64,000 nt of DNA from Candidatus Nomurabacteria bacterium (GTDB lineage: Bacteria; Patescibacteriota; Patescibacteriia; UBA1558; GWA2-36-10). The stretch covers positions 322,732 to 386,731 of the forward strand of contig JACKFO010000002.1 of NCBI GenBank assembly GCA_020632415.1, in the 5' to 3' direction. Made by a program: the position numbers and the translations under genes. A model generated the notes under the pieces. That model saw only the letters and a list, made by a program, of their open reading frames with translations, did not search any database and was not told the origin of the DNA. Shown in pieces: positions 23,530-60,737 of the stretch (positions are counted from its first letter, which is position 1; each line of letters starts with the position of its first letter).

Positions 23530-24513
23530 TCAGGGACGCCAGTAGTAGCGCACAGCCGCGACTGCCTGCTCGAGACGACTGTCGTAGCCGACCTGGAAGC
23601 TCAAAGAGCCGATCAGCTCCCCAGAATTCTTCCAGCCAAGAAAAGCCTGCCAGGCTTCAGCTTGCTCACCGAAGTCAAATCCTGAGGTCAAGAAGAACTT
23701 CTGCTTTGCTCCCAGACGGAGAAAATCCCAGTTTCCCTTCAAGACGTAGAGATTGTCCGGAGCGATCCATCCGTCCGGATGGAAGCGATAGCTCCAGCCA
23801 CCGGCCAAAGCCAAAGACTGCCAGGGTCGAGTGTAGAGCGAGACGTTATGACCAATCTCTTCTTCCCAGCTCAAGTGAAGATCGAAAATGCTCCAGTAGC
23901 CATTGAGGTGGTAGTTGCCGACCCAAACATCACTATCCAGCATCGGAAAAGCGCTGAACAAACTATCCAGACCTCGTGCTGGCCATGTACGACGAGCGCC
24001 ATAGCCCAAAGCAGCAGAAGCGCCAAAAGGTCGACCTCCCAACTGATCATACCAAGCGACTTGCAAGGCTGCTCCTGAGATACTCCCGGTAAAAGGCAGC
24101 TCAGCGTCATTTGGTCGCAAGAGAGTTGCTTCGTAGGCCTGAGGAAAGCTTTCCAAAGCCAGGTTTCGATACTGTCCAGCGCGCAGACTGAAATTCCCAT
24201 TGGAATTTCGCCAATCGTGCTGAACAAAGGCCTCGCTCAAGAAAGCCTCAGCCTGATCACCGTAAGCAATCTGACCTTCAGCCTTGAACGAAAAAACCTT
24301 GTTTTGACCACTTGAAACCCAAGCTTGTCCTCCTAGAAGGCTGTATGACCAGCGGGCTTGCAAGCTATCTTCGAAGCTGGTATTCAAACCAGCGCCTCCA
24401 TAGAAGTCCAGCTGGAAACGTTCCACCTGATCATCACTGGAAGCAGCAGCAAAAGCTGTGGACTGGGTCCAGAGGATCAACAGACCCAACAGCCAAAAAC
24501 TCAAAGTTTTCAT
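23530..24513 (-). CDS. secreted beta-barrel-like protein (ORFan, GC-rich cassette A)
   Basis: GC about 58%. GGAGG 8 nt upstream. Signal peptide (AFA|AA). Alternating aromatic/Gly-rich amphipathic strands along the protein. No recognisable family. Confidence 0.5.
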   Translation of the reverse strand: MKTLSFWLLGLLILWTQSTAFAAASSDDQVERFQLDFYGGAGLNTSFEDSLQARWSYSLLGGQAWVSSGQNKVFSFKAEGQIAYGDQAEAFLSEAFVQHDWRNSNGNFSLRAGQYRNLALESFPQAYEATLLRPNDAELPFTGSISGAALQVAWYDQLGGRPFGASAALGYGARRTWPARGLDSLFSAFPMLDSDVWVGNYHLNGYWSIFDLHLSWEEEIGHNVSLYTRPWQSLALAGGWSYRFHPDGWIAPDNLYVLKGNWDFLRLGAKQKFFLTSGFDFGEQAEAWQAFLGWKNSGELIGSLSFQVGYDSRLEQAVAAVRYYWRP

Positions 24514-24679: not shown

Positions 24680-24708
24680 TTGACAAATATTTTAAAATAG
24701 TATATAAT
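24680..24708 (+). promoter_or_regulatory. consensus sigma70 promoter TTGACA-17-TATAAT
   Basis: -35 at 24680-24685, -10 at 24703-24708. RBS GGAGG at 24744-24748 then ATG at 24754. Confidence 0.6.
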
Positions 24709-25622: not shown

Positions 25623-28600
25623 TTATTTTTTATACAAATTGTCTAAATCTACTTGATTACGAACTTCAATTGTTGGATCACCCAAAGGATCTAATCTAAA
25701 TAATTTACCGGCTTCTTTAACAAAGGTATTTCCTTCAGTATCAGTAAAAGTAGCGCCATCATTCATTTGTGATAATTGATCAAAACCACGGTGTACTTCA
25801 CCAGCTATTTCTGTGCTTGTCTGAGCTGCCTCAGCAACATTCTCGCTAACTGGAACTTGTTCAGGTATCGCCTCAGCTGACACTGGCTCTACCGGCTCTT
25901 CAATTGGCGTCTCAAAACTTTCTGGTTCCATAGCCCCAGCTGTCTCCCTAGCTTTCCTAGCTTGATCCAGACTTTCACTTAAACCAGACGCTTTTGGTTC
26001 TGGAATATTATCTGCTACTGGCGGCAAATTTTCAGACGCAGCTTTTGCCGCTGTTTTTACTGGCTCTGATAAAACTGAATTATCCAACCAAGATTCTAAA
26101 ACTTTTTCTTTCAAAGTCCAAGTATTGCCACTCAAGTCGTCTAACATATATTCTTCTTGACCAAATAAATGTTTTTTTACTAAATGCACAAAAGCATAAA
26201 ATTGACGACCATTTTCATCTTTGACTAAACGCGCCTCCCAAGCTTTACCAGGCAAAGAATCGCTAGTAGCTACTTTATCAAAAGCGGAAGTGTATCTTTC
26301 TACTGTTTCCAAATCATTTAGATCAGAAATCTTTACATTTGGCGCTTGTTCTACATATTTCAAAAATATCGCTGCTTTATTACTATCTGGTGTAAAAGAA
26401 TTTGGATAATAATCCTCCAAAAATTGCCTTTGTACCTCTGGAGAACTTTCAAAAACATGATTAACTAAAGCGTCAATTTCTTGTGGATTATTTTCTACTG
26501 CTCTTAAGAGCTCTTCTGAATAAGGAGTCTTACCAGCTAAAAATCCATCCAAATTAGCGGTAGCTACTTCTGCTGAGCCTGTTGTTTCTGGAACAAAATT
26601 ATGTCCACTATGATCTACCATTTTACTCAAATCATCTACTGTAACATCATGATTGTCTGCAAGACGATAAATTGTTTGACCATTGATTTCTACCTGCTCA
26701 ACTGGCTGATGATCAAAAGACCAATTATGCACTTCTCCATCATGAGACAACCAATCCGTACCATGTGCTCTAACTTCAGCAGCGATTTGGTCAACGCTTT
26801 CCGTACTGATTCTCACTCCATGTTTTGCTGCCTCGGCAATTGCTTCATTATTGGCAACAATATTTTGCATTTGCTCAGCAGTCAAAGCGCCTGATTTTTG
26901 CGCAGCTTCACTAATGTTTTCTGGATTAAATAAATTACCAAAATTTAACTTCGTGCCAAGCTTTAGCTGATCAACATCACCGTCAATACCAAAAGCTTTT
27001 GGATCAGCGACAATTTTATCTTTAAAATAATCAATAAAATAAGTACGCTGAGCTTCATTTAGATTGTTCCAATTTGGCACTCTAGCTCTTAACTGATCTT
27101 CTGTTAGATTCCAAACATTATCTCCTTTACTAACTACGGCTTCAACACTAATTCCTCCTTGATCTGGGATATTCTCTGCCACACCATGTGGTACTGGAGC
27201 GTCTGATTCTAAAGTTGGTCTTAAATAAGCTGTTTCTGGAGCGCCAGGATCAGCAACTTCCTGAGCGTGCTCTGCTGCGCCTTGCACCTGATCTGCGCCA
27301 TCAGCGTGACTTAATTTATCCAAAACTCTTGAACCAGCTATTGCTCCAACTGTCAAACCTAAAACCGCTGAGACGCCATATCGTCTCATAGCCTTCATAC
27401 GTGATTTATCTTGTGCGCTAGATAAAGTCTCTACCGTCTTCTGTTCTGTTTTTAAAGTCTCGCTGACAATATCAATTTTAACAGAATTAATTCTTTCATT
27501 ACCATTAACTATAGGCTCTCCTATAATTTCATCGAGAGCGATTTTATCTTGGAATTCCGACTTTAATCTTCGAAAATACTCTTCTTGAATCAAGTTCACA
27601 AAAGCTGCTTGCTCATCACCAAAACGACCAGCCTCAGCTAAACCAACTCTTTTATCTAAACTCAAAATTCTTAATCGCGCTAATTCTTTAGCTAATTCCT
27701 CTGTTGGATATTGCTCTTGATTTCCTAACACCTCTCTCCATTCAACGATATCTTCGTCTGTAATTTTTCCTGCTTCTGATTTTTTGCTTTTGAATCCAAG
27801 ATTTTTCATCTTGTCAATCAAACCTTTTTGTCCGCCCCATTCACTTCTTTTATCAATTGTTGCTTCAGCAAACATAAAAGTGCCCGTAGAAGACATCACG
27901 CCACGTGCTGTCAAAATACCAGCAACAACTCCAGTTGTACCACCGCTAAACAACAAACTAGCGCCAAACAAACCAACACCTAAACCTAATCTAATTTTTC
28001 CGGTTTTACGCCAAAATTCTTTAAATTTTCCAATAAAATTTTTATCCAAACCACTGGCTTCAGCGTCAATCGCCACTTCTTCGGCTTGTAACAAAGAAAT
28101 GTATTCGCTGGCCAATATGTTTTTAAGCTGTTCTATCGTAATCTTACCCTCAGTAAAATCTTGTAATAATTCTCCTTTTTTATTTTCCAAACTATCATGA
28201 ACATGCTTGTCTTTGGCCTCTTGGTAAGCTTGAGCTATTTTTTCAAATTTGCTTTTACCTCCACGAACAACCTGGCCTCTTTTATATAAAGCTTTTACAA
28301 AGGCTGAACGCAACTCATCTAAATTACCAGGAACAACATCTTCATAAGACTCATTTTCAATCTCCTCTGAAATTCCTCCGTCAATCACCTCCTCAACGCC
28401 TTCTTCAGTGCGATGGCTTTCTTCTGAATCTTCTTCAGTGGCGCCTTCTGCTGCTTTTTCAATTTCTTGACTAAAACGAGCAATAATATCATCCAACTTA
28501 TCTTCTAATTCCTCTCTTGGCAAACTTCTGTCTAAACTACTGATTTCATCAAGAAACTTAGCTTGAATTTCTGGATGTTTTTGACCGTCTTCATAATGAT

Positions 28601-30722
28601 TAATATATTCTTCATAGTCTTCAAATAATTTAACCATTTCATCATTTACCGGCTGTTTTTCTTGATCATTATCTCGTAATAATTCTAATTTCTGATCCAA
28701 AGCCTGATTAATCTCTCCAATTCTTTGATTTAGTTCTGCGATAGTTAAATTTTGATCAAGGGCTTTTATTTCGGCAATTTTAGCCGCAACTAAACCCGCT
28801 GCTTGTTCAGCTTTATTTCCATAATCATCAGCTCTCAATTCAGCAAATGTCTGATCTAATTCTTTAGCTGCTTTAGTAATTAATTTGGTTTGTTCATTAT
28901 TAGATTCAACTTGAGTTTCTACTTGTTCGGCTCCCTCTGCCACTTGACCATCTGCAGAATCCGATGCCGCTGTAGTGGCAGCTTCTCTATTTCTGTGATC
29001 TAAAGCTTCCTGAATAGTATAAACTTTTTCATTTGTTGTATTTGTATCCATTCCACGATCATTAAAAACAAAATCTGGATATGCAGTGGCAATCTTTTGT
29101 TCTAATTCGCTTAACTCTTCTCCCTCGATAATTTTGATCATTACTCTTCTAACCGCATTAATTAGTTCAACTTGAATCACATAATCTGACATGCTTTCGA
29201 TCGGATCACCAAACTTCCAACCACCCGGATTAGTTAATTGATCATTGACAATTTTAGCAAATAATCTTTCATCATAAGCAAATCTCATGCGATCATAAAC
29301 CCCTGCGGTTGGTACCGAATCTGGAGCTTCTTCTTCCGCTGCTTCAGGAGCATCATCGATATTTGAATCTACTTCTTTAGGTTCTAATTTAGCAACTAAA
29401 TCTGGAGACAAAAGCTTCCAAATAACAAATGGCTCTTGGCCTTCAATTTTGACTTCAAATTTTACTTTTTTCCAACCCTTATATGCGTCTTTGATTTCTG
29501 CTGAAGTGATCAAAGCTGCTGGGCGTACTTCATTGCGCAAACCCAACTGTAACTCTCCAGAAAGCTCGGTTAATTCATTACCCATTAATTGATTTACAGC
29601 GTCTACTATACCATCAAGATGCTCTTTGGCATCAAACTCAACCTGACCATCACCCATGATCATCAAATCGACTACTTTTGCTGCAAAGTCTTTTGGCATT
29701 AAAAAACTTTCCATCCCAGGTAGACCCTTAACAAAAGCTGAATCTACTTTAACTAATTCGTCAGTACCAAATTCTTCCATCGCACCTTCTTTTTCTGGAT
29801 CAAAATTTTCTATGCCTTGAAATTTAAACTCTGTTGGTATATTTATAATCACCTCCATCATTGCTCCGCTGCGCTCACCCAAACCTCTTTCAAATTCTTC
29901 AAGAGAAAAATCTAGCCTCCTTAAATCCTCTGGAACTTCGACAACAGGACTAACAGGCTTTTGACCAACGATTTTTGATGCTTCTTGATCAACAGGATTA
30001 GTACCAGTAACAGCACTATCTGGACGCAAGGCTGCTAAAAACTTCGGAAATTTATCAACCACATCTTCTATTTCTGCTGCTTTCAATCTTTTTAAACCAG
30101 ACAAATTACTTGCTAGCTTATCTTGTGCTTTTTTAAGAATTTCCTCATCAACACCCGAAGCTCTAAATTTTCTAAAATCACCACGCAAAATAGGCTCTGC
30201 TGCTTTTTCAATCGCAGCAAGAAATTCACGGCCGATATTTTGCATTTTTTCTTCAACGGCAGCTGAATCATCAAAAAAATGAGGATCATTAATTTGCTTC
30301 AATAAATCCTCTCTCTTGCTTTCAGCTAATAAATTGCTGTCTTTAATAGCCCTTTCTAATCTATCAAGCTCCTCTGCTAAGCGCTCCTGATCTGCATCAA
30401 AATCAGCTTCTTTTCCAAATACAGCATGTGCTAAATTATCAACTAATTCTTTAGTGGATTTGCCCGCTTGCTCTGCTTCAAGCCGCAAGCTAGGATCTTT
30501 AACTTCTGCTTTAAACTCATCAACATTTTGATCAACTTTTTGCTCAGTTTCTTGCGCAACTTGCAAAACTTGATCTGGTCGAGCTTCTGTCTCTGCTCCT
30601 GCTGTTAAATTTTCTTGACGATCTTGAGCTAAAAGCGCATCAATTCTTTCTGGATCAATTGCGCCAGGAATATTCTCTCCATTCCTTTTTTCTCTTAAAT
30701 GCCTGGATTGTTTATCACCCAT
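25623..30722 (-). CDS. giant (1699 aa) acidic coiled-coil protein with a central TM hairpin
   Basis: Single uninterrupted ORF. Long Glu/Lys-rich heptad-like stretches. Two hydrophobic helices near residue 900-950 (GLGVGLFGASLLFSGGTTGVVAGILTARGV). Polar C-terminal domain. Confidence 0.7.
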   Translation of the reverse strand: MGDKQSRHLREKRNGENIPGAIDPERIDALLAQDRQENLTAGAETEARPDQVLQVAQETEQKVDQNVDEFKAEVKDPSLRLEAEQAGKSTKELVDNLAHAVFGKEADFDADQERLAEELDRLERAIKDSNLLAESKREDLLKQINDPHFFDDSAAVEEKMQNIGREFLAAIEKAAEPILRGDFRKFRASGVDEEILKKAQDKLASNLSGLKRLKAAEIEDVVDKFPKFLAALRPDSAVTGTNPVDQEASKIVGQKPVSPVVEVPEDLRRLDFSLEEFERGLGERSGAMMEVIINIPTEFKFQGIENFDPEKEGAMEEFGTDELVKVDSAFVKGLPGMESFLMPKDFAAKVVDLMIMGDGQVEFDAKEHLDGIVDAVNQLMGNELTELSGELQLGLRNEVRPAALITSAEIKDAYKGWKKVKFEVKIEGQEPFVIWKLLSPDLVAKLEPKEVDSNIDDAPEAAEEEAPDSVPTAGVYDRMRFAYDERLFAKIVNDQLTNPGGWKFGDPIESMSDYVIQVELINAVRRVMIKIIEGEELSELEQKIATAYPDFVFNDRGMDTNTTNEKVYTIQEALDHRNREAATTAASDSADGQVAEGAEQVETQVESNNEQTKLITKAAKELDQTFAELRADDYGNKAEQAAGLVAAKIAEIKALDQNLTIAELNQRIGEINQALDQKLELLRDNDQEKQPVNDEMVKLFEDYEEYINHYEDGQKHPEIQAKFLDEISSLDRSLPREELEDKLDDIIARFSQEIEKAAEGATEEDSEESHRTEEGVEEVIDGGISEEIENESYEDVVPGNLDELRSAFVKALYKRGQVVRGGKSKFEKIAQAYQEAKDKHVHDSLENKKGELLQDFTEGKITIEQLKNILASEYISLLQAEEVAIDAEASGLDKNFIGKFKEFWRKTGKIRLGLGVGLFGASLLFSGGTTGVVAGILTARGVMSSTGTFMFAEATIDKRSEWGGQKGLIDKMKNLGFKSKKSEAGKITDEDIVEWREVLGNQEQYPTEELAKELARLRILSLDKRVGLAEAGRFGDEQAAFVNLIQEEYFRRLKSEFQDKIALDEIIGEPIVNGNERINSVKIDIVSETLKTEQKTVETLSSAQDKSRMKAMRRYGVSAVLGLTVGAIAGSRVLDKLSHADGADQVQGAAEHAQEVADPGAPETAYLRPTLESDAPVPHGVAENIPDQGGISVEAVVSKGDNVWNLTEDQLRARVPNWNNLNEAQRTYFIDYFKDKIVADPKAFGIDGDVDQLKLGTKLNFGNLFNPENISEAAQKSGALTAEQMQNIVANNEAIAEAAKHGVRISTESVDQIAAEVRAHGTDWLSHDGEVHNWSFDHQPVEQVEINGQTIYRLADNHDVTVDDLSKMVDHSGHNFVPETTGSAEVATANLDGFLAGKTPYSEELLRAVENNPQEIDALVNHVFESSPEVQRQFLEDYYPNSFTPDSNKAAIFLKYVEQAPNVKISDLNDLETVERYTSAFDKVATSDSLPGKAWEARLVKDENGRQFYAFVHLVKKHLFGQEEYMLDDLSGNTWTLKEKVLESWLDNSVLSEPVKTAAKAASENLPPVADNIPEPKASGLSESLDQARKARETAGAMEPESFETPIEEPVEPVSAEAIPEQVPVSENVAEAAQTSTEIAGEVHRGFDQLSQMNDGATFTDTEGNTFVKEAGKLFRLDPLGDPTIEVRNQVDLDNLYKK

Positions 30723-30723
30723 A

Positions 30724-30891
30724 TTATAATTGTTTATGAATTTTATCTAAAACCTTGTCTATTTCTTTTTGTTCAATAGACTTAATTTCCGCGCGAACCT
30801 TTTCGTTTGCGCGGTCTTTTAATTTATCTAATTCCTGCAAAAAATCTTGATAAATTTCTCTGATTTTTTTGATTTTTTCGTTGTTGGTCAT
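30724..30891 (-). CDS. small Lys/Glu-rich coiled-coil protein (55 aa), translationally coupled to the giant gene
   Basis: Own translation MTNNEKIKKIREIYQDFLQELDKLKDRANEKVRAEIKSIEQKEIDKVLDKIHKQL. Its TAA ends 1 nt before the ATG of the 1699-aa ORF. Below the ORF-track size cutoff. Confidence 0.35.
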   Translation of the reverse strand: MTNNEKIKKIREIYQDFLQELDKLKDRANEKVRAEIKSIEQKEIDKVLDKIHKQL

Positions 30892-30901
30892 AGCTTAAAA
30901 A

Positions 30902-31201
30902 CTAGGCATTAAAAACCTTGTCTTTCATGTTTAGCATTTCTTGCTTTAAATCATCAATGATTTGTTTGTGTAAGTCAGCAAAATTCGGCACTTTGCTTTT
31001 TATAAATTCATCAATGCCCTCGCCTTTTTCTAACACTTTGTCAAATTCAAGCTTATCTTCTTCAGACATTGCACCCAATAAAGCTCTGTTAAAACGACTT
31101 TCAATGACGTCAATGATTTGCTCACGCAAAGCTTGTTTTTTTTCTTCTGCTAAATCATTTAAGCCAAACTCTGTTAAAATATCAAATTGTTCTTCTGCCA
31201 T
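30902..31201 (-). CDS. hypothetical acidic helical protein (99 aa), first gene of the giant-protein operon
   Basis: Same strand and tight spacing with the two downstream genes. No known domain. Confidence 0.5.
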   Translation of the reverse strand: MAEEQFDILTEFGLNDLAEEKKQALREQIIDVIESRFNRALLGAMSEEDKLEFDKVLEKGEGIDEFIKSKVPNFADLHKQIIDDLKQEMLNMKDKVFNA

Positions 31202-31291
31202 AATTTTATTTGTTCCACTACTAGTGGCTAGTTAATTTTATTGACTTAATTATACAATAAATCAACAATTTAGCAAAATAAAAAGCCCACC

Positions 31292-31331
31292 ACTATTCCC
31301 GAAGGATTTCGTGGTGGGCTTGAGAAAACAA
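31292..31331 (-). terminator. intrinsic terminator of the cassette-F gene
   Basis: AAGCCCACCAC...GTGGTGGGCTT followed by UUUAUUUUG on the minus strand. Confidence 0.55.
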
Positions 31332-31338
31332 GACCGAA

Positions 31339-32688
31339 CTAGTCGACGTTCACTGTGCCAACAGCGCCACCGCCTCTGACCTTGATATTGGAGTTTTTCT
31401 TCTCAGCCAAATCTCCAATCTCTTGCAGACAACGCAGACGCTGTTCATAGGTTGCTGTTTCGGGGTTCAGGCCTAAAGCCGCCAAAGCAGCATCAATCTC
31501 TGCTGTGAAAGCCTCGCCATCTGCCTTGCGAAGACGAATCTTACGCTTGGATTCAGACTCAGCGGCGGCCTCAGCATTTTGAGCTTTTTCGATCTCTGGA
31601 TCTCTAGTGGGATCACCAAAGTCCAAAGTATCGAAAGCATGCCCAACGGCCTCCAGCAACTTGCCATTAAGTTCGGTTTGCTTCGAATGATCAAAGGTTA
31701 CGTCCAAACCCTTGACCTGATCGAAACTCATAGAGCTCATGACACTTATCACATCATTGACAATTACTGTGCCAGCTACCTCAACCGAAGTCGACTGATC
31801 CTCAGACGACATCCGCAGAAAACGAGAAGGATGCTGACAAGTAATCACGCCAACTCGAAGATCAATATTGGCAGTAGAGTTGTCTCCTAGCGGCACAAAA
31901 CCAGTCTTGTATTTGCGTTCTATGGCCTCATAACGCAACAGAGTGACGCTATAGAGAAACATCCAAACTGGAATTCCTACTCGGCCCAGATACCAAGGCA
32001 AGATTGGCGCATTTATGTCACTATCACGATGATTGCCGTGATTAGATCCATAAAAATACCAATCGCCAAATTTCTTCCTGATCGGACCTCTCGGAATCAG
32101 AAATGGCCTATTCATGAACTTCGGAACCCAGCGCTCGGTCACTTCCGGCACCATGATCGAACCAATACTCCAGAAAATTGGTAAAGCCAAGAGAAAGACT
32201 GGCTGCCAGATACCAACCATAGCGCAGGTGAAAAAGCCGACAGCAGAAATTACTCCGAACCCGTAAGGTCTGGCCGGAGGCGGAGCTGGTTTTTGACCCT
32301 TGACTACATCACGCTTATCAATGAAAAAGCTGCCGGTCCAAGCTCGGCGGAAAGCGATCACGCCGAAGCCTAGCAAAACAAGGCTGGCGATCAGCTTCCA
32401 CCAAGGGAATTCTCCGTTGAAATTAAGCCAGGAGAAAAGCTGCCAGTTCCACGGCTTCAGCAACAAAGCTGCGTACCAAAGAACAAGTCCAAGCTGCAAA
32501 GCGATCCGAGTCCTCTTATCCTTAGATGTTTTAGGCTTCTTATCCTTGTCCAGATCAACGAGCCAGCTATTCAAGCTCCAGTAGATACTGAGCGGCAAGG
32601 CAAAGAAGATCAGGAAAATAGCGATGCCGTGAACAAATTGTGGGTCTTTCCATCCCACACGGCTGATGATTTTCTCCAAGGCTTCCAT
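31339..32688 (-). CDS. polytopic membrane protein with cytoplasmic C-terminal domain (ORFan, GC-rich cassette F)
   Basis: GC about 50%. RBS GGAGAA. About six TM helices then an approximately 200-aa soluble domain ending in a coiled-coil-like KIRLRKADGEAFTAEIDAALAALG. Confidence 0.55.
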   Translation of the reverse strand: MEALEKIISRVGWKDPQFVHGIAIFLIFFALPLSIYWSLNSWLVDLDKDKKPKTSKDKRTRIALQLGLVLWYAALLLKPWNWQLFSWLNFNGEFPWWKLIASLVLLGFGVIAFRRAWTGSFFIDKRDVVKGQKPAPPPARPYGFGVISAVGFFTCAMVGIWQPVFLLALPIFWSIGSIMVPEVTERWVPKFMNRPFLIPRGPIRKKFGDWYFYGSNHGNHRDSDINAPILPWYLGRVGIPVWMFLYSVTLLRYEAIERKYKTGFVPLGDNSTANIDLRVGVITCQHPSRFLRMSSEDQSTSVEVAGTVIVNDVISVMSSMSFDQVKGLDVTFDHSKQTELNGKLLEAVGHAFDTLDFGDPTRDPEIEKAQNAEAAAESESKRKIRLRKADGEAFTAEIDAALAALGLNPETATYEQRLRCLQEIGDLAEKKNSNIKVRGGGAVGTVNVD

Positions 32689-32786
32689 GGTCGTTCTCCT
32701 TCATTTCGTTTTTTATTCAATCTTGTTTTCGTTGTCGATGAACAGTCGAACAATCGAGCTTGAAAGCTCAAATTATTCAATATAGA

Positions 32787-32815
32787 ATTATATCACATTT
32801 TTACATTTTTGTCAA
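32787..32815 (-). promoter_or_regulatory. consensus promoter TTGACA-17(ends TGA)-TATAAT for the cassette-F gene
   Basis: Minus-strand -35 is the complement of 32810-32815, -10 is the complement of 32787-32792. An approximately 95-nt leader contains the palindrome GAGCTT-ga-AAGCTC (32756-32769). Confidence 0.55.
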
Positions 32816-32873
32816 ACATAAAAGCCCCTATTCACAAAGATTAGAGGCTTTTTGGCTAATACTAGAGAAAATT

Positions 32874-33515
32874 TTATTTTCGCTCTTTTTTAAATAAGAA
32901 ATAAGAATAAATAACTGGAATCAACAATAAAACAATCAAAAGCACAAAAGCAGGGCTCATCAAACCCTCTGGCAAATAGCTGATAAAAATAAACATTGCG
33001 CCAGCAATTATAAACATGTACTTAGCTAATTCGTGAGTTTTTTGCCAAACACTATCACTGGACAAAGTCCATGGAGTTCGAATGCCGATAAACCAATTGG
33101 ATTTAAACTTCGGCATTAAAAAGCCAAAGATAATAAACATTACTCCAATCAATGAACTGACAACTGTGCCAATTGGTAAATTCCAACCTAAATTAGCTAA
33201 ACTAGTAACTACAAATAAAATTGCAAAAAATAATAAAAAAACAAATTGCATAATTTTATAAGCCGAGCCAAATTGAGCATAGTTCATTTTCTTGGGATCG
33301 AGGCGTGGTAAAAATTGAAACAAAAGATAAACAGCTAAAGTTAATAAAGGAAGAAAGATGACTTGAAAATTTTTGCTACTCCAGCCATCAACTTCGCCGG
33401 CAAAATTCCAGTGACTTGCTACCTTGGCTGGTAAAAGTGGGTAAAAATAAATCGCTAAAACAATTACCACCATGACCAAAATTGGATTTAAATAATCTAG
33501 TGTTTTTAATTTCAT
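32874..33515 (-). CDS. SdpI/DUF1648-family membrane protein
   Basis: HWNFAGEVDGWSSK...IGIRTPWTLSSDSVWQKTH motifs. Start trimmed to MKLKTL; the longer track ORF overlaps mutM. Confidence 0.6.
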   Translation of the reverse strand: MKLKTLDYLNPILVMVVIVLAIYFYPLLPAKVASHWNFAGEVDGWSSKNFQVIFLPLLTLAVYLLFQFLPRLDPKKMNYAQFGSAYKIMQFVFLLFFAILFVVTSLANLGWNLPIGTVVSSLIGVMFIIFGFLMPKFKSNWFIGIRTPWTLSSDSVWQKTHELAKYMFIIAGAMFIFISYLPEGLMSPAFVLLIVLLLIPVIYSYFLFKKERK

Positions 33516-35029: not shown

Positions 35030-35281
35030 TTATAATAAATTTTTAAGTAACTTTTCTTTTTGAGCTTTGGTCCAAGTTTTAATTTCCGCTTCTCTTTGCA
35101 TTGCTTCAGAAATAGTCTTGAACTCTTCTGAGTAAATAATTTTTACTGGTCTTCTGGCCTTTGTATATTTAGCTCCTTCTCCTACATTGTGTTTTGCTTC
35201 TCTGTCTTTTAAATTAACAGTATACCCAGTATACAAAGAGTTATCTTTACATCTTGCTAAATAAACATGATATTTCTTCAT
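35030..35281 (-). CDS. small GIY-YIG nuclease-family protein (YhbQ/UPF0213-like)
   Basis: YHVYLARCKDNSLYTGYTVNLKDREAKHN...VKIIYSEEF. Start trimmed to MKKYHV; the track ORF's N-terminal extension is tRNA-Tyr read as protein. Confidence 0.7.
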   Translation of the reverse strand: MKKYHVYLARCKDNSLYTGYTVNLKDREAKHNVGEGAKYTKARRPVKIIYSEEFKTISEAMQREAEIKTWTKAQKEKLLKNLL

Positions 35282-35298
35282 CGCTTTTCTTACTAAAA

Positions 35299-35386
35299 TG
35301 GTGGGCCGGGTAGGATTCGAACCTACGAAGGCGAAAGCCAGCAGATTTACAGTCTGCCCCGGTTGACCGCTTCGGTACCGACCCAT
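35299..35386 (-). tRNA. tRNA-Tyr (anticodon GUA), class II with long variable arm
   Basis: GGGTCGGTACCGAAGCGGTCAACCGGGGCAGACTGTAAATCTGCTGGCTTTCGCCTTCGTAGGTTCGAATCCTACCCGGCCCACCA. Confidence 0.85.
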
Positions 35387-49732: not shown

Positions 49733-49775
49733 TCTGTCAATATGTATTGACAGAAAAGTAAATATATGATATAAA
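49733..49775 (+). promoter_or_regulatory. promoter TTGACA-17(ends TGA)-TATAAA whose -35 lies inside a perfect 22-bp palindrome TCTGTCAATA-tg-TATTGACAGA
   Basis: Palindrome 49733-49754, -35 49747-49752, -10 49770-49775. A candidate operator overlapping the promoter. Confidence 0.55.
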
Positions 49776-49893
49776 AATACATTAATTACGTTCCTTACAA
49801 AGGAGATTGTTATAGTGTCTAGATTAACTAGATCATAGTTAGTTTGCACACTGTAACAGTCTTTCAACAATCCTCAAACAGGAGAACAAAGCC

Positions 49894-49962
49894 ATGTTCA
49901 AAAAGTGGTTTCCTAATCAAAGCAACCAGAGAGAGTCGACGTCTTCAACGCGAGTTGAGTAA
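49894..49962 (+). CDS. 22-aa upstream peptide (MFKKWFPNQSNQRESTSSTRVE)
   Basis: AGGAG 8 nt upstream. Ends 17 nt before the AAGGAGGG RBS of the next gene. Composition intermediate between host and cassette. Confidence 0.3.
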   Translation: MFKKWFPNQSNQRESTSSTRVE

Positions 49963-49979
49963 GCCTTAAGGAGGGAACA

Positions 49980-50429
49980 ATGAGTCCCAAGACCAAATTT
50001 TACTGCTGGCTGGCGGCGATGACCGTCATCACTCTGACGACTCTTTTTGTTGTCAACGCAGTGAGTGGTAATCCCACATTAGCCATATCCGCCGCATTCG
50101 GCGCGTTCGCTATCACCGTAATAGTCGCGCTCGCTGTCGCCACATCATCTGTCGTGCTCGCCGGACTCATCGCACTCCTGATCGCCAGCGGAGGCGGAGT
50201 GGTCGCGTGCGCTGTCGCACTCCTGATCACCGCCAGAGCCGGAGTGGTCGCGAACGTCGACGCATTCGCCGGACTCGCCGCCGCATCCTTAGCATTCGCC
50301 ATATCCGTCGTAATTATCTTCATCCTTTCTGCTTATAAGAGCACTCTTTCCAAGAGGCATATCCTTCTTTCAATGACGGTGGTATCCATTGTCATCGCCA
50401 CCCCGATGCTCTACCTCGCACTGCAGTAG
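49980..50429 (+). CDS. Ala-rich polytopic membrane protein (149 aa, ORFan, cassette B)
   Basis: GC about 58%. RBS AAGGAGGG. Four to five Ala/Val/Ile-rich TM helices. No known family. Confidence 0.5.
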   Translation: MSPKTKFYCWLAAMTVITLTTLFVVNAVSGNPTLAISAAFGAFAITVIVALAVATSSVVLAGLIALLIASGGGVVACAVALLITARAGVVANVDAFAGLAAASLAFAISVVIIFILSAYKSTLSKRHILLSMTVVSIVIATPMLYLALQ

Positions 50430-53922: not shown

Positions 53923-53951
53923 TTGACAAATAAATACTTTTATGATAATAT
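53923..53951 (+). promoter_or_regulatory. promoter TTGACA-17(ends TGA)-TAATAT for the cassette-C gene
   Basis: -35 53923-53928, -10 53946-53951. RBS GGAG at about 54007. Confidence 0.5.
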
Positions 53952-54015
53952 TCAAAATCTAAAATTGTCCTTTTCGCTTTTCAATAACCAATCACCTCAA
54001 GCAACCGGAGCAAAA

Positions 54016-54558
54016 ATGCAAGCCTTTCATGAGTGGTTCGTCCACGAACTCGAGCAACGGCAGAACACGATCGACAATCCCTGTCCGATCGAAGTCGAAG
54101 TCAATGAATCGGGTACGGTACTCGGTACCCTACCCGACAACCTGAAGCCCCTCTTCTTCCTGATGCTCGACCTGATCGATGAGCGCAACGAGTCCGCCAC
54201 CGCGCTCCACGACTGGATCGTGGAACACCCCGGATTCCACCCGGCACACCCCGAAGATGCCAAGCCGGAACTGATCGGGGAATTCCAGGAGAAGAAGATC
54301 AATCACCGAGTCGCCTGCGACAAGCTGAAGACGATCACGTCCTACTTCTGGAGCAGCATCCACCACATCTTCCCCGACAGCCACAACCACAACAAGATGG
54401 AGGTCTGCAAGGACTGGCAGATCGTCTGCGGAGATGATGAAGGTGACATCAAGATCGATATCATCGGCATCGGCGGCATTCCCTCCGACTTCGTCGGTGG
54501 CTCCACCGTCGATCCCTTCGGCGACCTCCTCGGCAGCTTCTTCCGTCGAGGACACTGA
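54016..54558 (+). CDS. acidic His/Cys-containing cytoplasmic ORFan (180 aa, cassette C)
   Basis: GC about 57%, E. coli-like codons. Start trimmed to the SD-preceded ATG (MQAFHEWFVHELEQ...). No known domain. Confidence 0.5.
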   Translation: MQAFHEWFVHELEQRQNTIDNPCPIEVEVNESGTVLGTLPDNLKPLFFLMLDLIDERNESATALHDWIVEHPGFHPAHPEDAKPELIGEFQEKKINHRVACDKLKTITSYFWSSIHHIFPDSHNHNKMEVCKDWQIVCGDDEGDIKIDIIGIGGIPSDFVGGSTVDPFGDLLGSFFRRGH

Positions 54559-54590
54559 CGCCTCAACGCAGCAGAAATGATTGGCCACAG

Positions 54591-54626
54591 CCCCAAGTGC
54601 ATCACGCGCTTGGGGTTATTTTTTTA
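54591..54626 (+). terminator. intrinsic terminator of cassette C
   Basis: CCCCAAG-tgcatcacgcg-CTTGGGG followed by TTATTTTTTT. Confidence 0.55.
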
Positions 54627-54691
54627 AAACAAAATATAATACATTGATTTTTTTCTTAAAAATAAGTAAGATTAGCTTATAAATTTTAATT

Positions 54692-56610: not shown

Positions 56611-56687
56611 GCGCCTATAGCTCAGCCTGGTAGAGCAGTTGCCTTTTAAGCAAACGGTCGAGGGTTCGAATCCCCCTGGGCGCACCA
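56611..56687 (+). tRNA. tRNA-Lys (anticodon UUU)
   Basis: GCGCCTATAGCTCAGCCTGGTAGAGCAGTTGCCTTTTAAGCAAACGGTCGAGGGTTCGAATCCCCCTGGGCGCACCA. Close to E. coli tRNA-Lys. One T-stem mismatch noted. Confidence 0.8.
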
Positions 56688-56811
56688 CTCACTTAAAATT
56701 AATCAAGGTGCTCTGACCTTGTTTTTTTATTGACAAAATAAATAAGTAGTATAAACTTAATAAGTAAAATAAGTCCTTCCACCCGTCCATCTTAAACCAA
56801 GGAGGTATGCC

Positions 56812-56898
56812 ATGCATGCCAACCACGCCCCGCCCACGATGAGCACCGATCTCGTTTCGCCCCTGCGCCGTCAGCTCAAGAGCACCGAAATCGTCTAG
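56812..56898 (+). CDS. 28-aa hydrophilic peptide (MHANHAPPTMSTDLVSPLRRQLKSTEIV), cassette D unit 1
   Basis: GC-rich. AAGGAGG 6 nt upstream. Own promoter-like TTGACA at about 56743. Followed by a strong terminator. Confidence 0.35.
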   Translation: MHANHAPPTMSTDLVSPLRRQLKSTEIV

Positions 56899-56935
56899 AG
56901 CCACCAAGGCAGACGAGGCTATTGAGCTTCACCTA

Positions 56936-56967
56936 CGGCTCGCGCCACGCGCGAGCCGCTTTTTTTA
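56936..56967 (+). terminator. intrinsic terminator CGGCTCGCGC-cac-GCGCGAGCCG plus T7 (copy 1)
   Basis: 10-bp GC stem with a 3-nt loop. Identical to the copy at 57246-57278. Confidence 0.65.
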
Positions 56968-57102
56968 TCCAAAGTTTGACAAAATTAGAAATATATCATA
57001 AAATAAAAACTCAAGGAGTGTGAGTATTCTCAAGACTGACTTGGGAATCTCCCTCAACAACCATCAACCGTGGCTGTCCGCAAGGACGAAAGGAGCCGGT
57101 CT

Positions 57103-57201
57103 ATGAAGACCCCCTGCACCGCCATCATCACCCAGAAGAGCACGGAGATCGTGCAGACCACCGAGAAGAACGGCCAGCTCAAGGCCATCGAGCAGATCTA
57201 G
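57103..57201 (+). CDS. 32-aa hydrophilic peptide (MKTPCTAIITQKSTEIVQTTEKNGQLKAIEQI), cassette D unit 2
   Basis: GC-rich. RBS AAGGAG. Shares KSTEIV with unit 1. Promoter TTGACA-17-TAAAAT at 56975-57003. Approximately 95-nt GC-rich leader. Confidence 0.35.
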   Translation: MKTPCTAIITQKSTEIVQTTEKNGQLKAIEQI

Positions 57202-57245
57202 CTCCAGCGGGAGTAAATCACTCGAAGCCAAGAAGCTGAAACACC

Positions 57246-57278
57246 CACGGCTCGCGCCACGCGCGAGCCGCTTTTTTT
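57246..57278 (+). terminator. intrinsic terminator CGGCTCGCGC-cac-GCGCGAGCCG plus T7 (copy 2)
   Basis: 33-nt near-identical repeat of the unit-1 terminator, with one mismatch in the 5' flank. Confidence 0.65.
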
Positions 57279-57366
57279 ATTGCATAAATTGTGTTTAAAC
57301 TGTCAATAAAATTGCCTTGAAAAAAGCTAAAAAATAAGGTAAGCTAACTCTACTAAAACAGGCTTT

Positions 57367-60182: not shown

Positions 60183-60211
60183 TTGACAAAATATATATTA
60201 TATGATATAAT
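60183..60211 (+). promoter_or_regulatory. consensus promoter TTGACA-17(ends TGA)-TATAAT for the cassette-E gene
   Basis: -35 60183-60188, -10 60206-60211. RBS GGAGG at 60250-60254. Confidence 0.55.
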
Positions 60212-60260
60212 ACCAAAGAATTGGACATTTTCACAACAAAAGCAGCAGTTGGAGGAAATC

Positions 60261-60737
60261 ATGAATTGGCGAAAAATTGCACTTCTGTGCCTACTTCTTG
60301 CTTTGCCGATGTGGATGCTGATCCGTTCTATGCTGCCTTCGCAGTCAGTTATGGAACAGCTCCAGGAGATCGCCGATCGAACTCCCATTCACTTCGCTTT
60401 GTTGGTCGATGGACAGAGAATCGAGTATTTCGGCTTTGCCATCGATACCAGCACAGCAGCGGATACGAGTTTCGTCGAAAATCTCTACTTCTACGATCAA
60501 GTCGTGATCTGCAACATTCCAGGAGAGAACCAGTACCTCGAAGTACTCAAGGACACCCTGGATACGATCGACCCTCTGGGCACAGTCAAAGATCACGCTC
60601 CATTGGTCGGAGGCGACTACATCATCGAAGCCTACGATGCTTGGACGGATTCCCTCAAGTTCAGAGCGCGAATTCGCGCCGAACACATTGACGGAGAACC
60701 GTACATCTTCGATGATCAGAACCTTGTCAACAACTGA
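60261..60737 (+). CDS. secreted ORFan (158 aa, cassette E)
   Basis: GC about 55%. Signal peptide MNWRKIALLCLLLALPMW. Start trimmed to the SD-preceded ATG. No known domain. Confidence 0.5.
   Translation: MNWRKIALLCLLLALPMWMLIRSMLPSQSVMEQLQEIADRTPIHFALLVDGQRIEYFGFAIDTSTAADTSFVENLYFYDQVVICNIPGENQYLEVLKDTLDTIDPLGTVKDHAPLVGGDYIIEAYDAWTDSLKFRARIRAEHIDGEPYIFDDQNLVNN

Follow-up and report, generated by a model that had tools for sequence, protein, structure and literature searches.

SPFH scaffolds are ubiquitous, and their bacterial roles are poorly defined. Among the described systems closest to the one studied here, HflK/HflC of E. coli (PDB 7vhp, 7vhq, 7wi3) are encoded by a gene pair; they have one transmembrane (TM) helix, face the periplasm and cage FtsH. 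Stomatins, with QmcA and the Pyrococcus stomatin (PDB 9oh9, 9z7u, 8z5g, 3bk6, 4fvj), are oriented towards the cytoplasm. They are held by a single hairpin/TM anchor and end in a long coiled-coil helix with a C-terminal tail; in bacteria and archaea their genes are usually paired with NfeD. Flotillins (FloT/FloA, YqiK; PDB 9bq2, 9l3g) combine the SPFH fold at the cytoplasmic face with a single anchor and far longer coiled-coil regions, and serve as microdomain scaffolds. With regard to the locus, the closest described cases are replacement-type flexible genomic islands and allelic surface-gene loci, e.g., O-antigen/glycotype and cell-wall islands (PMC4535781, PMC3478194), where divergent contents of atypical composition occupy a fixed slot in close strains, with the conserved flanks as homology arms.

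Here, we report on a gene, in the following called X, within a 64-kb stretch of DNA (the window, i.e., the whole stretch that was analysed) of an 842-kb genome. X encodes a very divergent SPFH (stomatin/flotillin/HflK) member and is GC-rich in the AT-rich, tiny genomes of a small group of "Nomurabacteria". We hold it to be reasonably probable that X is a clade-restricted polytopic SPFH membrane scaffold that is kept in the form of deeply divergent, recombining alleles. The gene and its neighbours are located as follows (window positions).

31339..32688, minus strand: coding sequence of X (449 aa and stop codon, ATG start)
32874..33515, minus strand: SdpI/DUF1648 membrane protein of native GC (Pfam SdpI 1.3e-19, DUF1648 1.7e-16)
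25623..31201, minus strand: downstream neighbours of X, a separate operon (DUF5663 at 30902-31201, 55-aa protein at 30724-30891, giant 1699-aa protein at 25623-30722)

The 449-aa reading frame agrees with the first-pass annotation of this DNA, whose estimate of about 50% GC compares with a measured value of 48.5% (GC3 0.516). Neighbouring genes show 28-37% GC (GC3 0.22-0.32) and the genome 36%. NCBI's H6761_01745 (345 aa) is 100% identical to X over its 345 aa, and its start is annotated too late; full-length members of the X family have 450-520 aa.

X is a discrete transcription unit of atypical composition with its own promoter and its own terminator, as the annotation had proposed. The respective signals are listed below.

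32787..32815, minus strand: promoter of X (-35 TTGACA at 32815-32810, 17-nt spacer, extended -10 TGATATAAT at 32795-32787)
32689..32780, minus strand: 5' leader of X (~92 nt; transcription start inferred ~7 nt past the -10)
32746..32780, minus strand: 5'-proximal stem-loop of 15 bp (dG -14 kcal/mol, z = -3.85; first 45 nt)
32694..32699, minus strand: Shine-Dalgarno GGAGAA, 5 nt ahead of the ATG
31273..31321, minus strand: intrinsic terminator of X (11-bp GC-rich stem at 31283-31321 plus U-tract)
32820..32852, minus strand: intrinsic terminator of the upstream SdpI-like gene (dG -16.1 kcal/mol, z = -3.1), the upstream limit of the X unit

The promoter had been read as an exact TTGACA-17-TATAAT, and it indeed scores 12/12 against the consensus, with TATAAT at 32792-32787 preceded by TG. 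Within the 64-kb window, the extended promoter pattern (at most one mismatch) occurs 6 times versus 0.08 expected; there are 2 perfect matches. Across 6 orthologous loci, the two hexamers and the TG do not vary while the intergenic DNA around them has diverged; the exception in the alignment is locus L008, whose -10 reads TATAGT. The leader, previously put at ~95 nt, is ~92 nt long when counted from the inferred transcription start, and 87-98 nt long in the 6 loci. Its palindrome GAGCTT-ga-AAGCTC, already noted in the first pass, is the tip of the 15-bp hairpin. A hairpin of 10-17 bp is found at the equivalent leader position in 6/6 loci, with differing sequences (z <= -2 in 5/6). A riboswitch or known cis-regulatory leader was rejected, since no Rfam family matches the leader at the gathering threshold (only chance-level matches below it, E 0.25-0.67). 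Most simply, the conserved stem-loop would stabilise the 5' end of the mRNA. The ribosome binding site GGAGAA of the first pass is confirmed, and a GGAG-like element precedes the start codon in orthologous loci as well. The terminator of X, likewise anticipated, reaches a dG of -27.3 kcal/mol (z = -4.53), and 0/200 shuffles are as stable. With its consensus extended -10 promoter, strong Shine-Dalgarno sequence and strong terminator, X would be expressed as an autonomous unit.

The annotation had called the soluble domain loosely reminiscent of SPFH-like proteins. We assessed this with an AF2 model that was built on a 17-sequence alignment (pLDDT 73 overall, core above 85, residues 240-350 at 85-92); an earlier 2-sequence alignment gave pLDDT 38. 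Weak parts of the model are the N-terminal module (44-71), residues 216-233 and the C-terminal tail. In the Foldseek comparison of this model with the PDB, a check the annotation had suggested for the C-terminal domain, the top 44 matches are SPFH proteins only (probability 0.96-1.00), the best being stomatin (E = 1.4e-8, probability 1.00). The SPFH core of X matches that of mouse stomatin with TMt 0.70-0.73 and an rmsd of 2.6-2.9 Å, and TMt values of 0.62-0.73 are obtained versus isolated SPFH domains. The predicted alpha/beta fold comprises SPFH1 and SPFH2. Identity to solved SPFH proteins of the same fold is 10-18%. In a BFVD structure search, viral SPFH proteins rank first. As modelled, the fold of X is that of an SPFH protein.

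On the sequence level, signals are weak. The X family profile identifies HflK as best match (E = 0.0018), followed by stomatin, QmcA, HflC and prohibitin. Pfam Band_7 (PF01145) aligns to residues 252-389 of X (E = 0.0062), but with 17 bits it stays below the gathering cutoff of 23.6 bits; 5/14 relatives match (E <= 1, best 1.6e-8), and the protein P0002 has a precomputed PF01145 match. Structure search, family profile and Band_7 matches among relatives thus agree with the earlier guess. A profile-profile comparison of X with canonical SPFH proteins yields a probability of 39% only, single-sequence searches in NCBIfam and PDB sequences return no match, and PHROGs gives one chance-level match. 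X shares with SPFH proteins a membrane anchor directly N-terminal to the SPFH domain (TM5) and, behind SPFH2, a long Ala/Glu-rich coiled coil that leads into a short C-terminal stretch; here, 'EKAQNAEAAAESESKRK' aligns to the coiled-coil region of HflK.

The protein is composed of the following parts.

32404..32688, minus strand: N-module, codons 1-95 (TM1 and TM2, with an acidic N-tail and loop 2 on the outside and a Lys/Arg-rich loop 1 in the cytoplasm)
32149..32403, minus strand: TM3, cytoplasmic loop 3 (W..SFFxDxR, PPP) and TM4-TM5 hairpin, codons 96-180 (pLDDT 81-96)
31609..32148, minus strand: SPFH (Band-7) domain, codons 181-360, with an insertion at ~195-235
31396..31599, minus strand: Ala/Glu-rich coiled-coil helices CC1 (residues 364-404) and CC2 (residues 414-431), from AF2 secondary structure, aligned to the HflK coiled-coil region
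31342..31395, minus strand: C-terminal tail, residues 432-449, ...VRGGGAVGTVNVD (pLDDT < 50 in the monomer model)

That is, we count five TM helices instead of the six proposed before. The sixth was rejected, as residues 236-251 are modelled as an SPFH beta-strand and stay below the hydropathy threshold. The soluble domain is also larger than the ~200 aa first assumed (~270 aa, residues 181-449); its coiled coil is recovered as CC1 and CC2. The topology, a prediction of which the annotation had suggested, was predicted from positive-inside counts over 15 members: Lys+Arg per residue amounts to 0.32 in loop 1, 0.20 in loop 3 and 0.14 after TM5, compared with 0.06 in N-tail and loop 2. This puts N-tail and loop 2 outside, and loops 1 and 3 as well as the SPFH domain in the cytoplasm. 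Loop 2 is acidic and 16 to 48 residues long across the family, D124, R126, W161 and G176 are fully or almost invariant, and the Gly-rich tail is conserved; the latter may provide a cap strand in an oligomer. TM5 (residues 164-180) directly abuts 'PEVTERWVPKF', and in HflK this segment is matched by the end of the TM and the beginning of SPFH. In order, X would accordingly comprise an extracytoplasmic N-tail, five TMs, the SPFH domain on the cytoplasmic side, the helices CC1 and CC2, and the Gly-rich tail, with TM5 as the probable counterpart of the usual SPFH membrane anchor.

Next, we consider where X occurs. The family comprises 15 cluster representatives in 1.84 billion proteins, and none of the 1.84e9 representatives outside the clade is a homologue. 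IMG/VR and 50,697 phage genomes hold no relatives either, for which reason a viral or phage origin was rejected. Since the X alignment is too divergent, loci were located via the SdpI and 55-aa neighbours; metagenomes gave at least 3 loci. At all X homologues with usable context (about a dozen alleles), the gene order is Fpg-SdpI-X-DUF5663-55aa-giant protein. Directly upstream of X, all loci that reach far enough carry the SdpI gene, and X is present in every locus with a 55-aa or DUF5663 gene. The first-pass annotation had described an insertion between the giant-protein operon and the SdpI-like gene. Its comparative check at the locus supports the position, but not an insertion specific to this genome, as the slot is shared by all relatives with context.

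A rival explanation is that X is a foreign cassette, recently acquired by this genome via horizontal transfer into this place. The composition (48.5% GC vs ~33% in the flanks), the sharply different synonymous codon usage and the autonomous transcription unit fit this explanation. We nevertheless consider it very improbable, given that the slot is filled in all relatives examined and that the searches just described (1.84e9 representatives, IMG/VR, phage genomes) yield no homologue beyond the clade. Composition itself also argues against it. X homologues have 42-52% GC vs 30-34% for SdpI, and every one of them is GC-rich. The C-modules of the window and of locus L001 both retain a GC3 of ~0.5 at a dS of 1.1 (flanks 0.9-1.9). 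Because GC3 was kept while the gene diverged in step with its flanks, the composition is stationary and not un-ameliorated. Synteny, clade restriction and stationary composition together largely refute a recent transfer. A lineage-conserved homologue of native composition, which the annotation had set against its own reading, is found only in part: the conservation within the lineage holds, while native composition was never seen. A common donor for all GC-rich cassettes was rejected too, as their synonymous-site compositions are strongly unlike each other. GC-richness is a stable property of X; possible causes are considered below.

We also compared the alleles of X between close strains. Loci L002 and L005 have flanks of 96-100% identity and share the first 92 codons of X, whereas the remainder is unalignable, i.e., DNA similarity is absent from nt ~278 of X to its stop. 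Both allele types are seen in independent assemblies. This exchange alters X alone: no neighbour covaries and the giant protein is 99.9% identical, such that a specific partner finds no support. In the pair L008/L013, the entire X CDS is exchanged from leader to stop codon, while L008/L095 and window/L001 differ by an exchanged N-module. Identities of N-/C-module in three pairs are 87/16, 62/13 and 32/78%. The N-module assorts independently of the remaining gene, as seen in the module incongruence and in DNA breakpoints in or near loop 2. Phylogeny is mirrored by SdpI identity, not by X identity, and classes of X alleles share 20-30% identity with each other. Within a class, the picture differs: the C-modules of the window and L001 show a dS of ~1.1 and a dN/dS of ~0.11, close to SdpI and Fpg. 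From this dN/dS we conclude that the protein is functional. Judged from these sequence divergences, X has diverged vertically with its flanks within one allele class. At the population level, where genes and modules are swapped, the cassette of the first pass is indeed replaceable. Modular replacement, synteny and purifying selection within the class are direct outcomes of these comparisons. Searches for repeats or paralogues of X (tblastn and blastn, 64-kb window of the 842-kb genome) find nothing with E < 0.09 besides X itself. A diversity-generating retroelement (DGR) or silent-cassette conversion was rejected, given that the window holds no X repeats and that the whole gene varies, not a short variable region.

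These data also bear on whether X could be an ordinary flotillin-like housekeeping scaffold, hypervariable for neutral reasons, i.e., weak constraint plus a local recombination hotspot, with GC lifted incidentally by GC-biased gene conversion (gBGC). SPFH proteins do keep their fold at 10-18% identity, recombination at X is evident, and gBGC is documented in bacteria (PMC4450053). Constraint within the class, in contrast, equals that of Fpg and SdpI (dN/dS ~0.11), and weak constraint is inadequate to explain 20-30% identity between classes in strains with flanks of 97-100% identity. Moreover, coexisting classes of such depth require long-term maintenance, and the GC3 excess of X is +0.25. Typical effects of gBGC in bacteria are far smaller than this excess. 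We therefore regard a neutral origin of the variability as highly unlikely.

Under the preferred scaffold reading, homologous recombination would exchange alleles in two or more modules, of which one is the N-module as far as loop 2 and another the part from TM3 to the C-terminus. The divergent, exchanged classes would mark a functional protein under balancing or negative frequency-dependent selection. If X is largely cytoplasmic, diversifying or balancing selection on the C-module would be hard to account for. By analogy with solved assemblies of stomatin, flotillin, HflK/C, QmcA, prohibitin and erlin, X would most likely oligomerise via its coiled coil. On the cytoplasmic side, the oligomer may close into a ring or cage and corral a patch of membrane that its TM bundles line. 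Probable clients of X are envelope proteins from the adjacent genes, i.e., the SdpI-like protein or else the module of DUF5663, 55-aa and giant protein. A link between SdpI and SPFH proteins is suggested by 18 Anaerolineales-type genomes, where a Band_7 gene lies immediately upstream of an SdpI homologue; against it, this is one further lineage only and its gene order is reversed. Literature on SdpI with SPFH, on DUF5663 and on Patescibacteria with SPFH offered nothing relevant.

Selection could also stem from phages. X might be an anti-phage or superinfection-exclusion membrane protein that detects or stops phages at the membrane, with allele swaps that reflect an arms race with phage proteins similar to that of defence islands. 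Its replacement between near-identical strains, the atypical composition, the single-gene autonomous unit with a strong promoter, and the location of the sole surface-exposed parts (N-tail and loop 2) within an independently exchanged module are consistent with this role. We rate it as unlikely, since X has no match in PADLOC-DB 2.0 (0 families at E <= 10) or NCBIfam and no effector domain beyond SPFH, and no defined SPFH-based defence system was found in the literature. In addition, defence genes typically show a presence/absence pattern, whereas this slot is fixed and filled in every case.

Alternatively, X could be an abundant envelope protein under negative frequency-dependent selection, i.e., a phage receptor or a host-contact component. 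Its exposed N-tail and loop 2 would be recognised from outside, be it by a phage or the episymbiont's host cell, with diversity serving escape or specificity. The acidic, length-variable loop 2 (16 to 48 residues) with its module boundaries would suit such a contact. The giant envelope protein operon is always accompanied by X. As for the other GC-rich cassettes with consensus promoters that we examined (a, b, 49980-50429, 60264-60737), their products are secreted or membrane proteins. However, X exposes little surface, and the cytoplasmic C-module is equally hypervariable and was exchanged alone in L002/L005, where the giant protein remained 99.9% identical. A receptor or contact role is thus a doubtful explanation as well.

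A broader and tentative possibility combines these elements. X may belong to an undescribed class of fixed single-gene slots for envelope proteins in Nomurabacteria-like CPR. Besides X, this class would include the two genes with signal peptides that lie past the giant protein, and maybe further ones. All slots would have a consensus promoter, a strong terminator, ancient recombining alleles and a stationary GC3 of 0.4-0.75, in genomes with a GC3 of ~0.25. The class would be shaped by a locus-specific compositional force together with negative frequency-dependent selection by phages or the host cell. X, as a polytopic SPFH cage, would then serve to exclude phages or to specify host contact. 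If true, the compositional force could be very strong gBGC by hyper-recombination or selection on mRNA.

For SPFH proteins in general, the five-TM architecture, the restriction to one clade and the modularly exchanged alleles of X offer a fresh angle on role and selection. For base composition, the locus offers a clean natural experiment as well (dS ~1, GC3 ~0.5 beside neighbours at ~0.25), in which biased gene conversion, selection and repeated import become directly testable alternatives. Finally, it forms a compact strain-variable envelope region beside a giant surface protein and may govern interactions of CPR bacteria with phages or hosts.

When X is compared with the known systems, the alignment of its family profile with HflK begins where the TM anchor ends ('FWrLGg..vtERwV' vs 'IIWAASGFYTIKEAERGVV') and extends across SPFH2 and the coiled coil rich in Ala/Glu. 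Identity to HflK/HflC is ~15% (Foldseek E 2.4e-6 to 1e-4). In contrast to the periplasm-facing pair with one TM, X is a single gene with five TMs and an SPFH domain predicted to be cytoplasmic, and we see no evidence of a link to FtsH. The best structural matches, i.e., the stomatins, share the cytoplasmic orientation as well as the long coiled-coil helix and C-terminal tail. X differs from them by its 4-TM extension, the SFFxDxR loop and the ~40-residue SPFH1 insertion. An NfeD partner is absent among its neighbours (Pfam scans) and within X itself, with SdpI/DUF1648 upstream and DUF5663 downstream instead. Flotillins (Foldseek E ~1e-4) have fold and cytoplasmic face in common with X and, if its role is judged by analogy, the scaffold function; X is polytopic and its coiled coil is shorter.

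The Anaerolineales pairs of Band_7 and SdpI (loci L048, L022, L034 and others) resemble X in that an SPFH gene adjoins DUF1648/SdpI on the same strand. Their SPFH proteins are canonical stomatin-like ones (316-328 aa, Band_7 E ~1e-34 to 1e-38). In contrast to X, they are encoded upstream of SdpI by genes of native composition, and identity among them is 71-76%; orthology to X was rejected (hhalign probability 39%). With replacement-type flexible islands, X shares the fixed slot, the conserved flanks as homology arms, the divergent contents in close strains and the atypical composition. It differs in that the slot holds one gene, whose alternatives are all homologous and of the same architecture, and in that exchange also takes place within the gene, at a domain boundary. 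Furthermore, its product is mostly cytoplasmic and membrane-embedded, whereas flexible islands concern surface glycans or the S-layer.

The gene under study, X (NCBI H6761_01745), lies on the reverse strand with the following elements.

31339-32688, minus: X CDS, 449-aa ORF
32815-32787, minus: X promoter, TTGACA-17-TATAAT with TG extended -10
32746-32780, minus: 15-bp stem-loop within the 5' leader of about 92 nt
5 nt 5' of the ATG, minus: RBS GGAGAA
31283-31321, minus: intrinsic terminator of X, dG -27.3 kcal/mol, z = -4.5
32820-32852, minus: the SdpI-like gene's own terminator, upstream of X

The window has 36% GC overall (low-GC genome) and the neighbouring genes 28-37% (GC3 0.22-0.32); the X CDS has 48.5% (GC3 0.516), in line with the roughly 50% of the first-pass annotation. 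Its promoter with TG, its leader (put at about 95 nt) with RBS GGAGAA and the terminator belonging to X were confirmed as well. The GAGCTT/AAGCTC palindrome it described is present and forms the tip of the 15-bp stem-loop. H6761_01745, encoded on an 842-kb contig of a Candidatus Nomurabacteria (CPR/Patescibacteria) assembly, is 100% identical to the C-terminal 345 residues of the X ORF, and its NCBI start lies about 104 codons too late; the 449-aa reading is backed by RBS, promoter and N-terminal homology alike.

With at most one mismatch, the window holds 6 copies of the extended promoter pattern (0.08 expected), of which only two are perfect. Across six loci, the hexamers and TG of the X promoter do not change, and the remaining intergenic DNA diverges. 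Each of the six leaders carries a hairpin of 10-17 bp right after the predicted transcription start (z <= -2 in 5/6). The hairpins are built from different sequences, which speaks for conservation of RNA structure and against a sequence-specific operator. The hairpin is not followed by a U-tract, and the leader has no Rfam match; the simplest reading is a putative 5' mRNA-stabilising stem-loop. A second conserved motif, yTTGACA(A/G)GAAA, is found 3' of the hairpin, about 45-60 nt past the -10, in 4/6 loci (in the window CATCGACAACGAAA, about 32725-32740; equivalents in L001, L010 and L013). It is a candidate protein-binding site or second -35-like element.

With regard to genomic context, X had been taken for an insertion between the SdpI-like gene and the giant-protein operon. 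Comparative genomics rejects this, i.e., X occupies a fixed slot. Every homologue with flanking DNA shows the order Fpg - SdpI/DUF1648 - X - DUF5663 - 55-aa - giant (1150-1700 aa), and X is present at every locus carrying 55-aa or DUF5663 genes. The homologous loci compared are L001, L002-4, L005-6, L008-9, L010-11, L012 (partial), L013, L093-95, L096-97 and L099-100. In L010 (9726-11693), the DUF5663 and 55-aa pair is duplicated in tandem, with both 55-aa copies identical in protein sequence and a large protein after each (326 aa, 1289 aa). Between the TPR gene and Fpg, the window also holds a small GIY-YIG-like ORF (35030-35386, minus) that adjoins tRNA-Thr and tRNA-Tyr and overlaps the latter (35299-35384); in L010, the GIY-YIG gene is duplicated and Fpg fragmented (75-aa remnant).

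The alleles filling this slot are exchanged in modules. Relatedness of the loci is mirrored by SdpI identity and not by X identity, and identities of the N-module (codons 1-95) and C-module (TM3 to C-terminus) are incongruent across the X family (proteins P0002, P0007, etc.).

Identities and substitution rates between loci or family members
L002 / L005: SdpI 98%, X 40%
L008 / L013: SdpI 93%, X 28%
L013 / L095: SdpI 90%, X 31%
L008 / L095: SdpI 89%, X 64%
window / L001: SdpI 79%, X 68%
P0012 / P0017: N-module 87%, C-module 16%
P0007 / P0013: N-module 62%, C-module 13%
window / P0002: N-module 32%, C-module 78%
X C-module, window / L001: dN 0.118, dS 1.11
SdpI, window / L001: dN 0.135, dS 1.86
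Fpg, window / L001: dN 0.123, dS 0.90

L002 and L005 are 96-100% identical in DNA on both sides of X, with giant proteins 99.9% identical, and within X no similarity can be detected between about nt 278 and the stop codon. These alleles are not chimeras, because both are seen again in independent assemblies. Between L008 and L013, similarity is lost exactly between leader and stop codon, while for L008/L095 and window/L001 the first 90-115 codons differ and the remainder is common. The module boundary falls within the extracytoplasmic loop 2. P0012 and P0007 have almost identical C-terminal tails and otherwise different sequences; the family architecture persists even in the C-modules that diverge most. 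In L002, the contig stops just past the giant gene, where the GC-rich genes a and b would come, and the L005 contig begins a few genes upstream of X, as would be expected if differences between strains disrupt assembly in this region.

Judged by the substitution rates, X is under ordinary purifying selection within one allele class. Together with the replacement patterns, it follows that X varies through replacement among ancient allele classes, as opposed to rapid point mutation. The 64-kb window contains neither silent copies nor repeats of X.

All X alleles are GC-rich (42-52%, GC3 0.38-0.59), next to SdpI genes of 30-34% GC, and their synonymous usage is distinct at 2-fold and 4-fold sites; e.g., G/(A+G) is 0.55-0.67 compared to 0.10-0.33 in housekeeping genes. 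Un-ameliorated foreign DNA is rejected as explanation: the C-modules of window and L001 are about one synonymous substitution per site apart and both still have a GC3 of about 0.5. We therefore infer that GC-richness is a stationary property of the locus. No GC-rich donor was found in 1.84 billion cluster representatives, IMG/VR or phage genomes. Several other envelope-gene cassettes with consensus promoters in these genomes share the stable excess of about 15 points (GC3 +0.25). GC-biased gene conversion (PMC4450053) at a recombination hotspot may be the cause, but its effect size would be exceptional, and the giant gene is not GC-rich though evolving fast across genera.

Such cassettes and islands in the window are as follows.

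24565/24754-25500, plus: gene a, beyond the giant gene, signal peptide
23530-24513, minus: gene b, beyond the giant gene, signal peptide
24680-24708, plus, and 24649-24621, minus: perfect and near-perfect a/b promoters; strong terminators are also present
49980-50429 (within 49747-50429), plus: GC-rich island, 149-aa Ala/Val-rich multi-TM protein
ATG about 60264 to 60737 (within 60183-60737), plus: GC-rich island, secreted protein of about 157 aa

The divergent pair a/b has 52-55% GC (GC3 0.54-0.71 in the window, 0.54-0.76 across the four genomes compared) and a position conserved in L005, L008 and L013. The window's copies are 32-49% identical to those of L005 or L008. Against window or L008, L013 shows 27-29% for b and no significant match for a. 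One of the two is beta-rich, ends in ...RYYWRP and is porin-like in look, which would be odd for a presumed monoderm CPR bacterium. At least two further islands (49980-50429 and about 60264-60737) fit the X pattern, with 49747-50429 and 60183-60737 sitting directly behind consensus extended -10 promoters; that of the latter gene is the window's only perfect TTGACA-17-TGnTATAAT besides that of X. Neither a and b nor the two island proteins have a Pfam match. A single donor is excluded by the differing synonymous composition of the individual cassettes. Two more stretches have 48-51% GC: 53941-54680 shows overlapping ORFs on both strands without Pfam match, and 56661-57360, which separates tRNA-Lys from dnaB, lacks any ORF of at least 90 aa and, even with a permissive threshold, any Rfam match. 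The latter could be a structured RNA or small-protein gene.

As a single sequence, X matches Band_7 alone in Pfam, below the curated threshold (E = 0.006, 17 bits, cutoff 23.6), and nothing in NCBIfam, PADLOC or PDB sequence searches. Searched exhaustively by HMM, 1.84 billion cluster representatives gave only 15 homologues (E <= 1e-3), thirteen of them full-length (460-522 aa), the remainder being the truncated NCBI model of X and two fragments. Band_7 is matched by 5/14 family members (best 1.6e-8), and the family profile matches HflK (E = 0.0018), Pyrococcus stomatin, QmcA, HflC, stomatin and prohibitin; in the alignment, the TM5 end and 'ERWVP' of X fall on the anchor and SPFH start of HflK. 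AlphaFold2 confidence rose from pLDDT 38 with two sequences to 73 with 17, where residues 95-200 and 240-350 are mostly above 85. The model shows the following.

Residues 16-46, 56-87, 96-118, 143-161, 163-176: five TM helices
Loop 3: short strand at the conserved SFFID
SPFH domain: beta/alpha core
Residues 364-404 (41 residues), 414-431: C-terminal helices

An SPFH fold is shown by this predicted structure. The first 44 Foldseek matches in the PDB are all SPFH proteins (human stomatin 1.4e-8, then prohibitin, HflK/C, erlin, flotillin, QmcA), which bears out the resemblance suspected earlier, and a BFVD search returns viral SPFH proteins. Against the SPFH domain of mouse stomatin taken alone, the TM-score is 0.70-0.73 at 2.6-2.9 A. 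Six TM helices had been expected; the hydrophobic segment 236-251, taken for the sixth, is modelled as an SPFH strand. Lys+Arg per residue over 15 family members (loop 1 0.32, loop 3 0.20, post-TM5 segment 0.14, N-tail and loop 2 each 0.06) gives a predicted topology with N-terminus out, C-terminus in and the SPFH domain cytoplasmic.

Since solved SPFH assemblies match its fold, X likely would oligomerise via its coiled coil, forming a ring or cage at the cytoplasmic side of the membrane with five TM helices per subunit; neighbouring gene products would be candidate clients. X strictly co-occurs with the DUF5663/55-aa/giant-protein operon. It speaks against a specific co-evolving partner that L002 and L005 differ in X alone. 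Plausibly, N-module diversity stems from phage or host-cell interaction via the exposed N-tail and loop 2, and C-module diversity from an arms race against phage factors inside the cell. No known defence model in PADLOC matches X, and we found no literature linking SPFH to a defined defence system.

The SPFH identification is itself ordinary; the interest lies in the evolution, i.e., a fixed slot, ancient allele classes swapped in modules among near-identical strains, and a stable GC excess. Literature searches turned up no account of such a pattern in CPR bacteria.

In 18 Anaerolineales-type genomes (L048, L022, L034, L075, L089, L064 and 12 others), a canonical Band_7 gene lies directly upstream of an SdpI homologue, which provides an independent link of SdpI-like proteins with SPFH scaffolds; we found no description of this conserved pair in the literature. 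These proteins are rejected as X orthologues. They are canonical and stomatin-like (316-328 aa), 0-120 nt 5' of or overlapping DUF1648/SdpI on the same strand. X shares four defining features with the superfamily (fold, anchor, coiled coil and tail) and has no adjacent NfeD partner gene. It is a polytopic SPFH protein, in which four extra TM helices precede an anchor of HflK/stomatin type, the SPFH domain and the coiled coil, and the conserved W..SFFxDxR/PPP loop is a further addition ahead of the anchor. X fits best as a new variant within the SPFH family, polytopic and restricted to one clade, with predicted oligomerisation.
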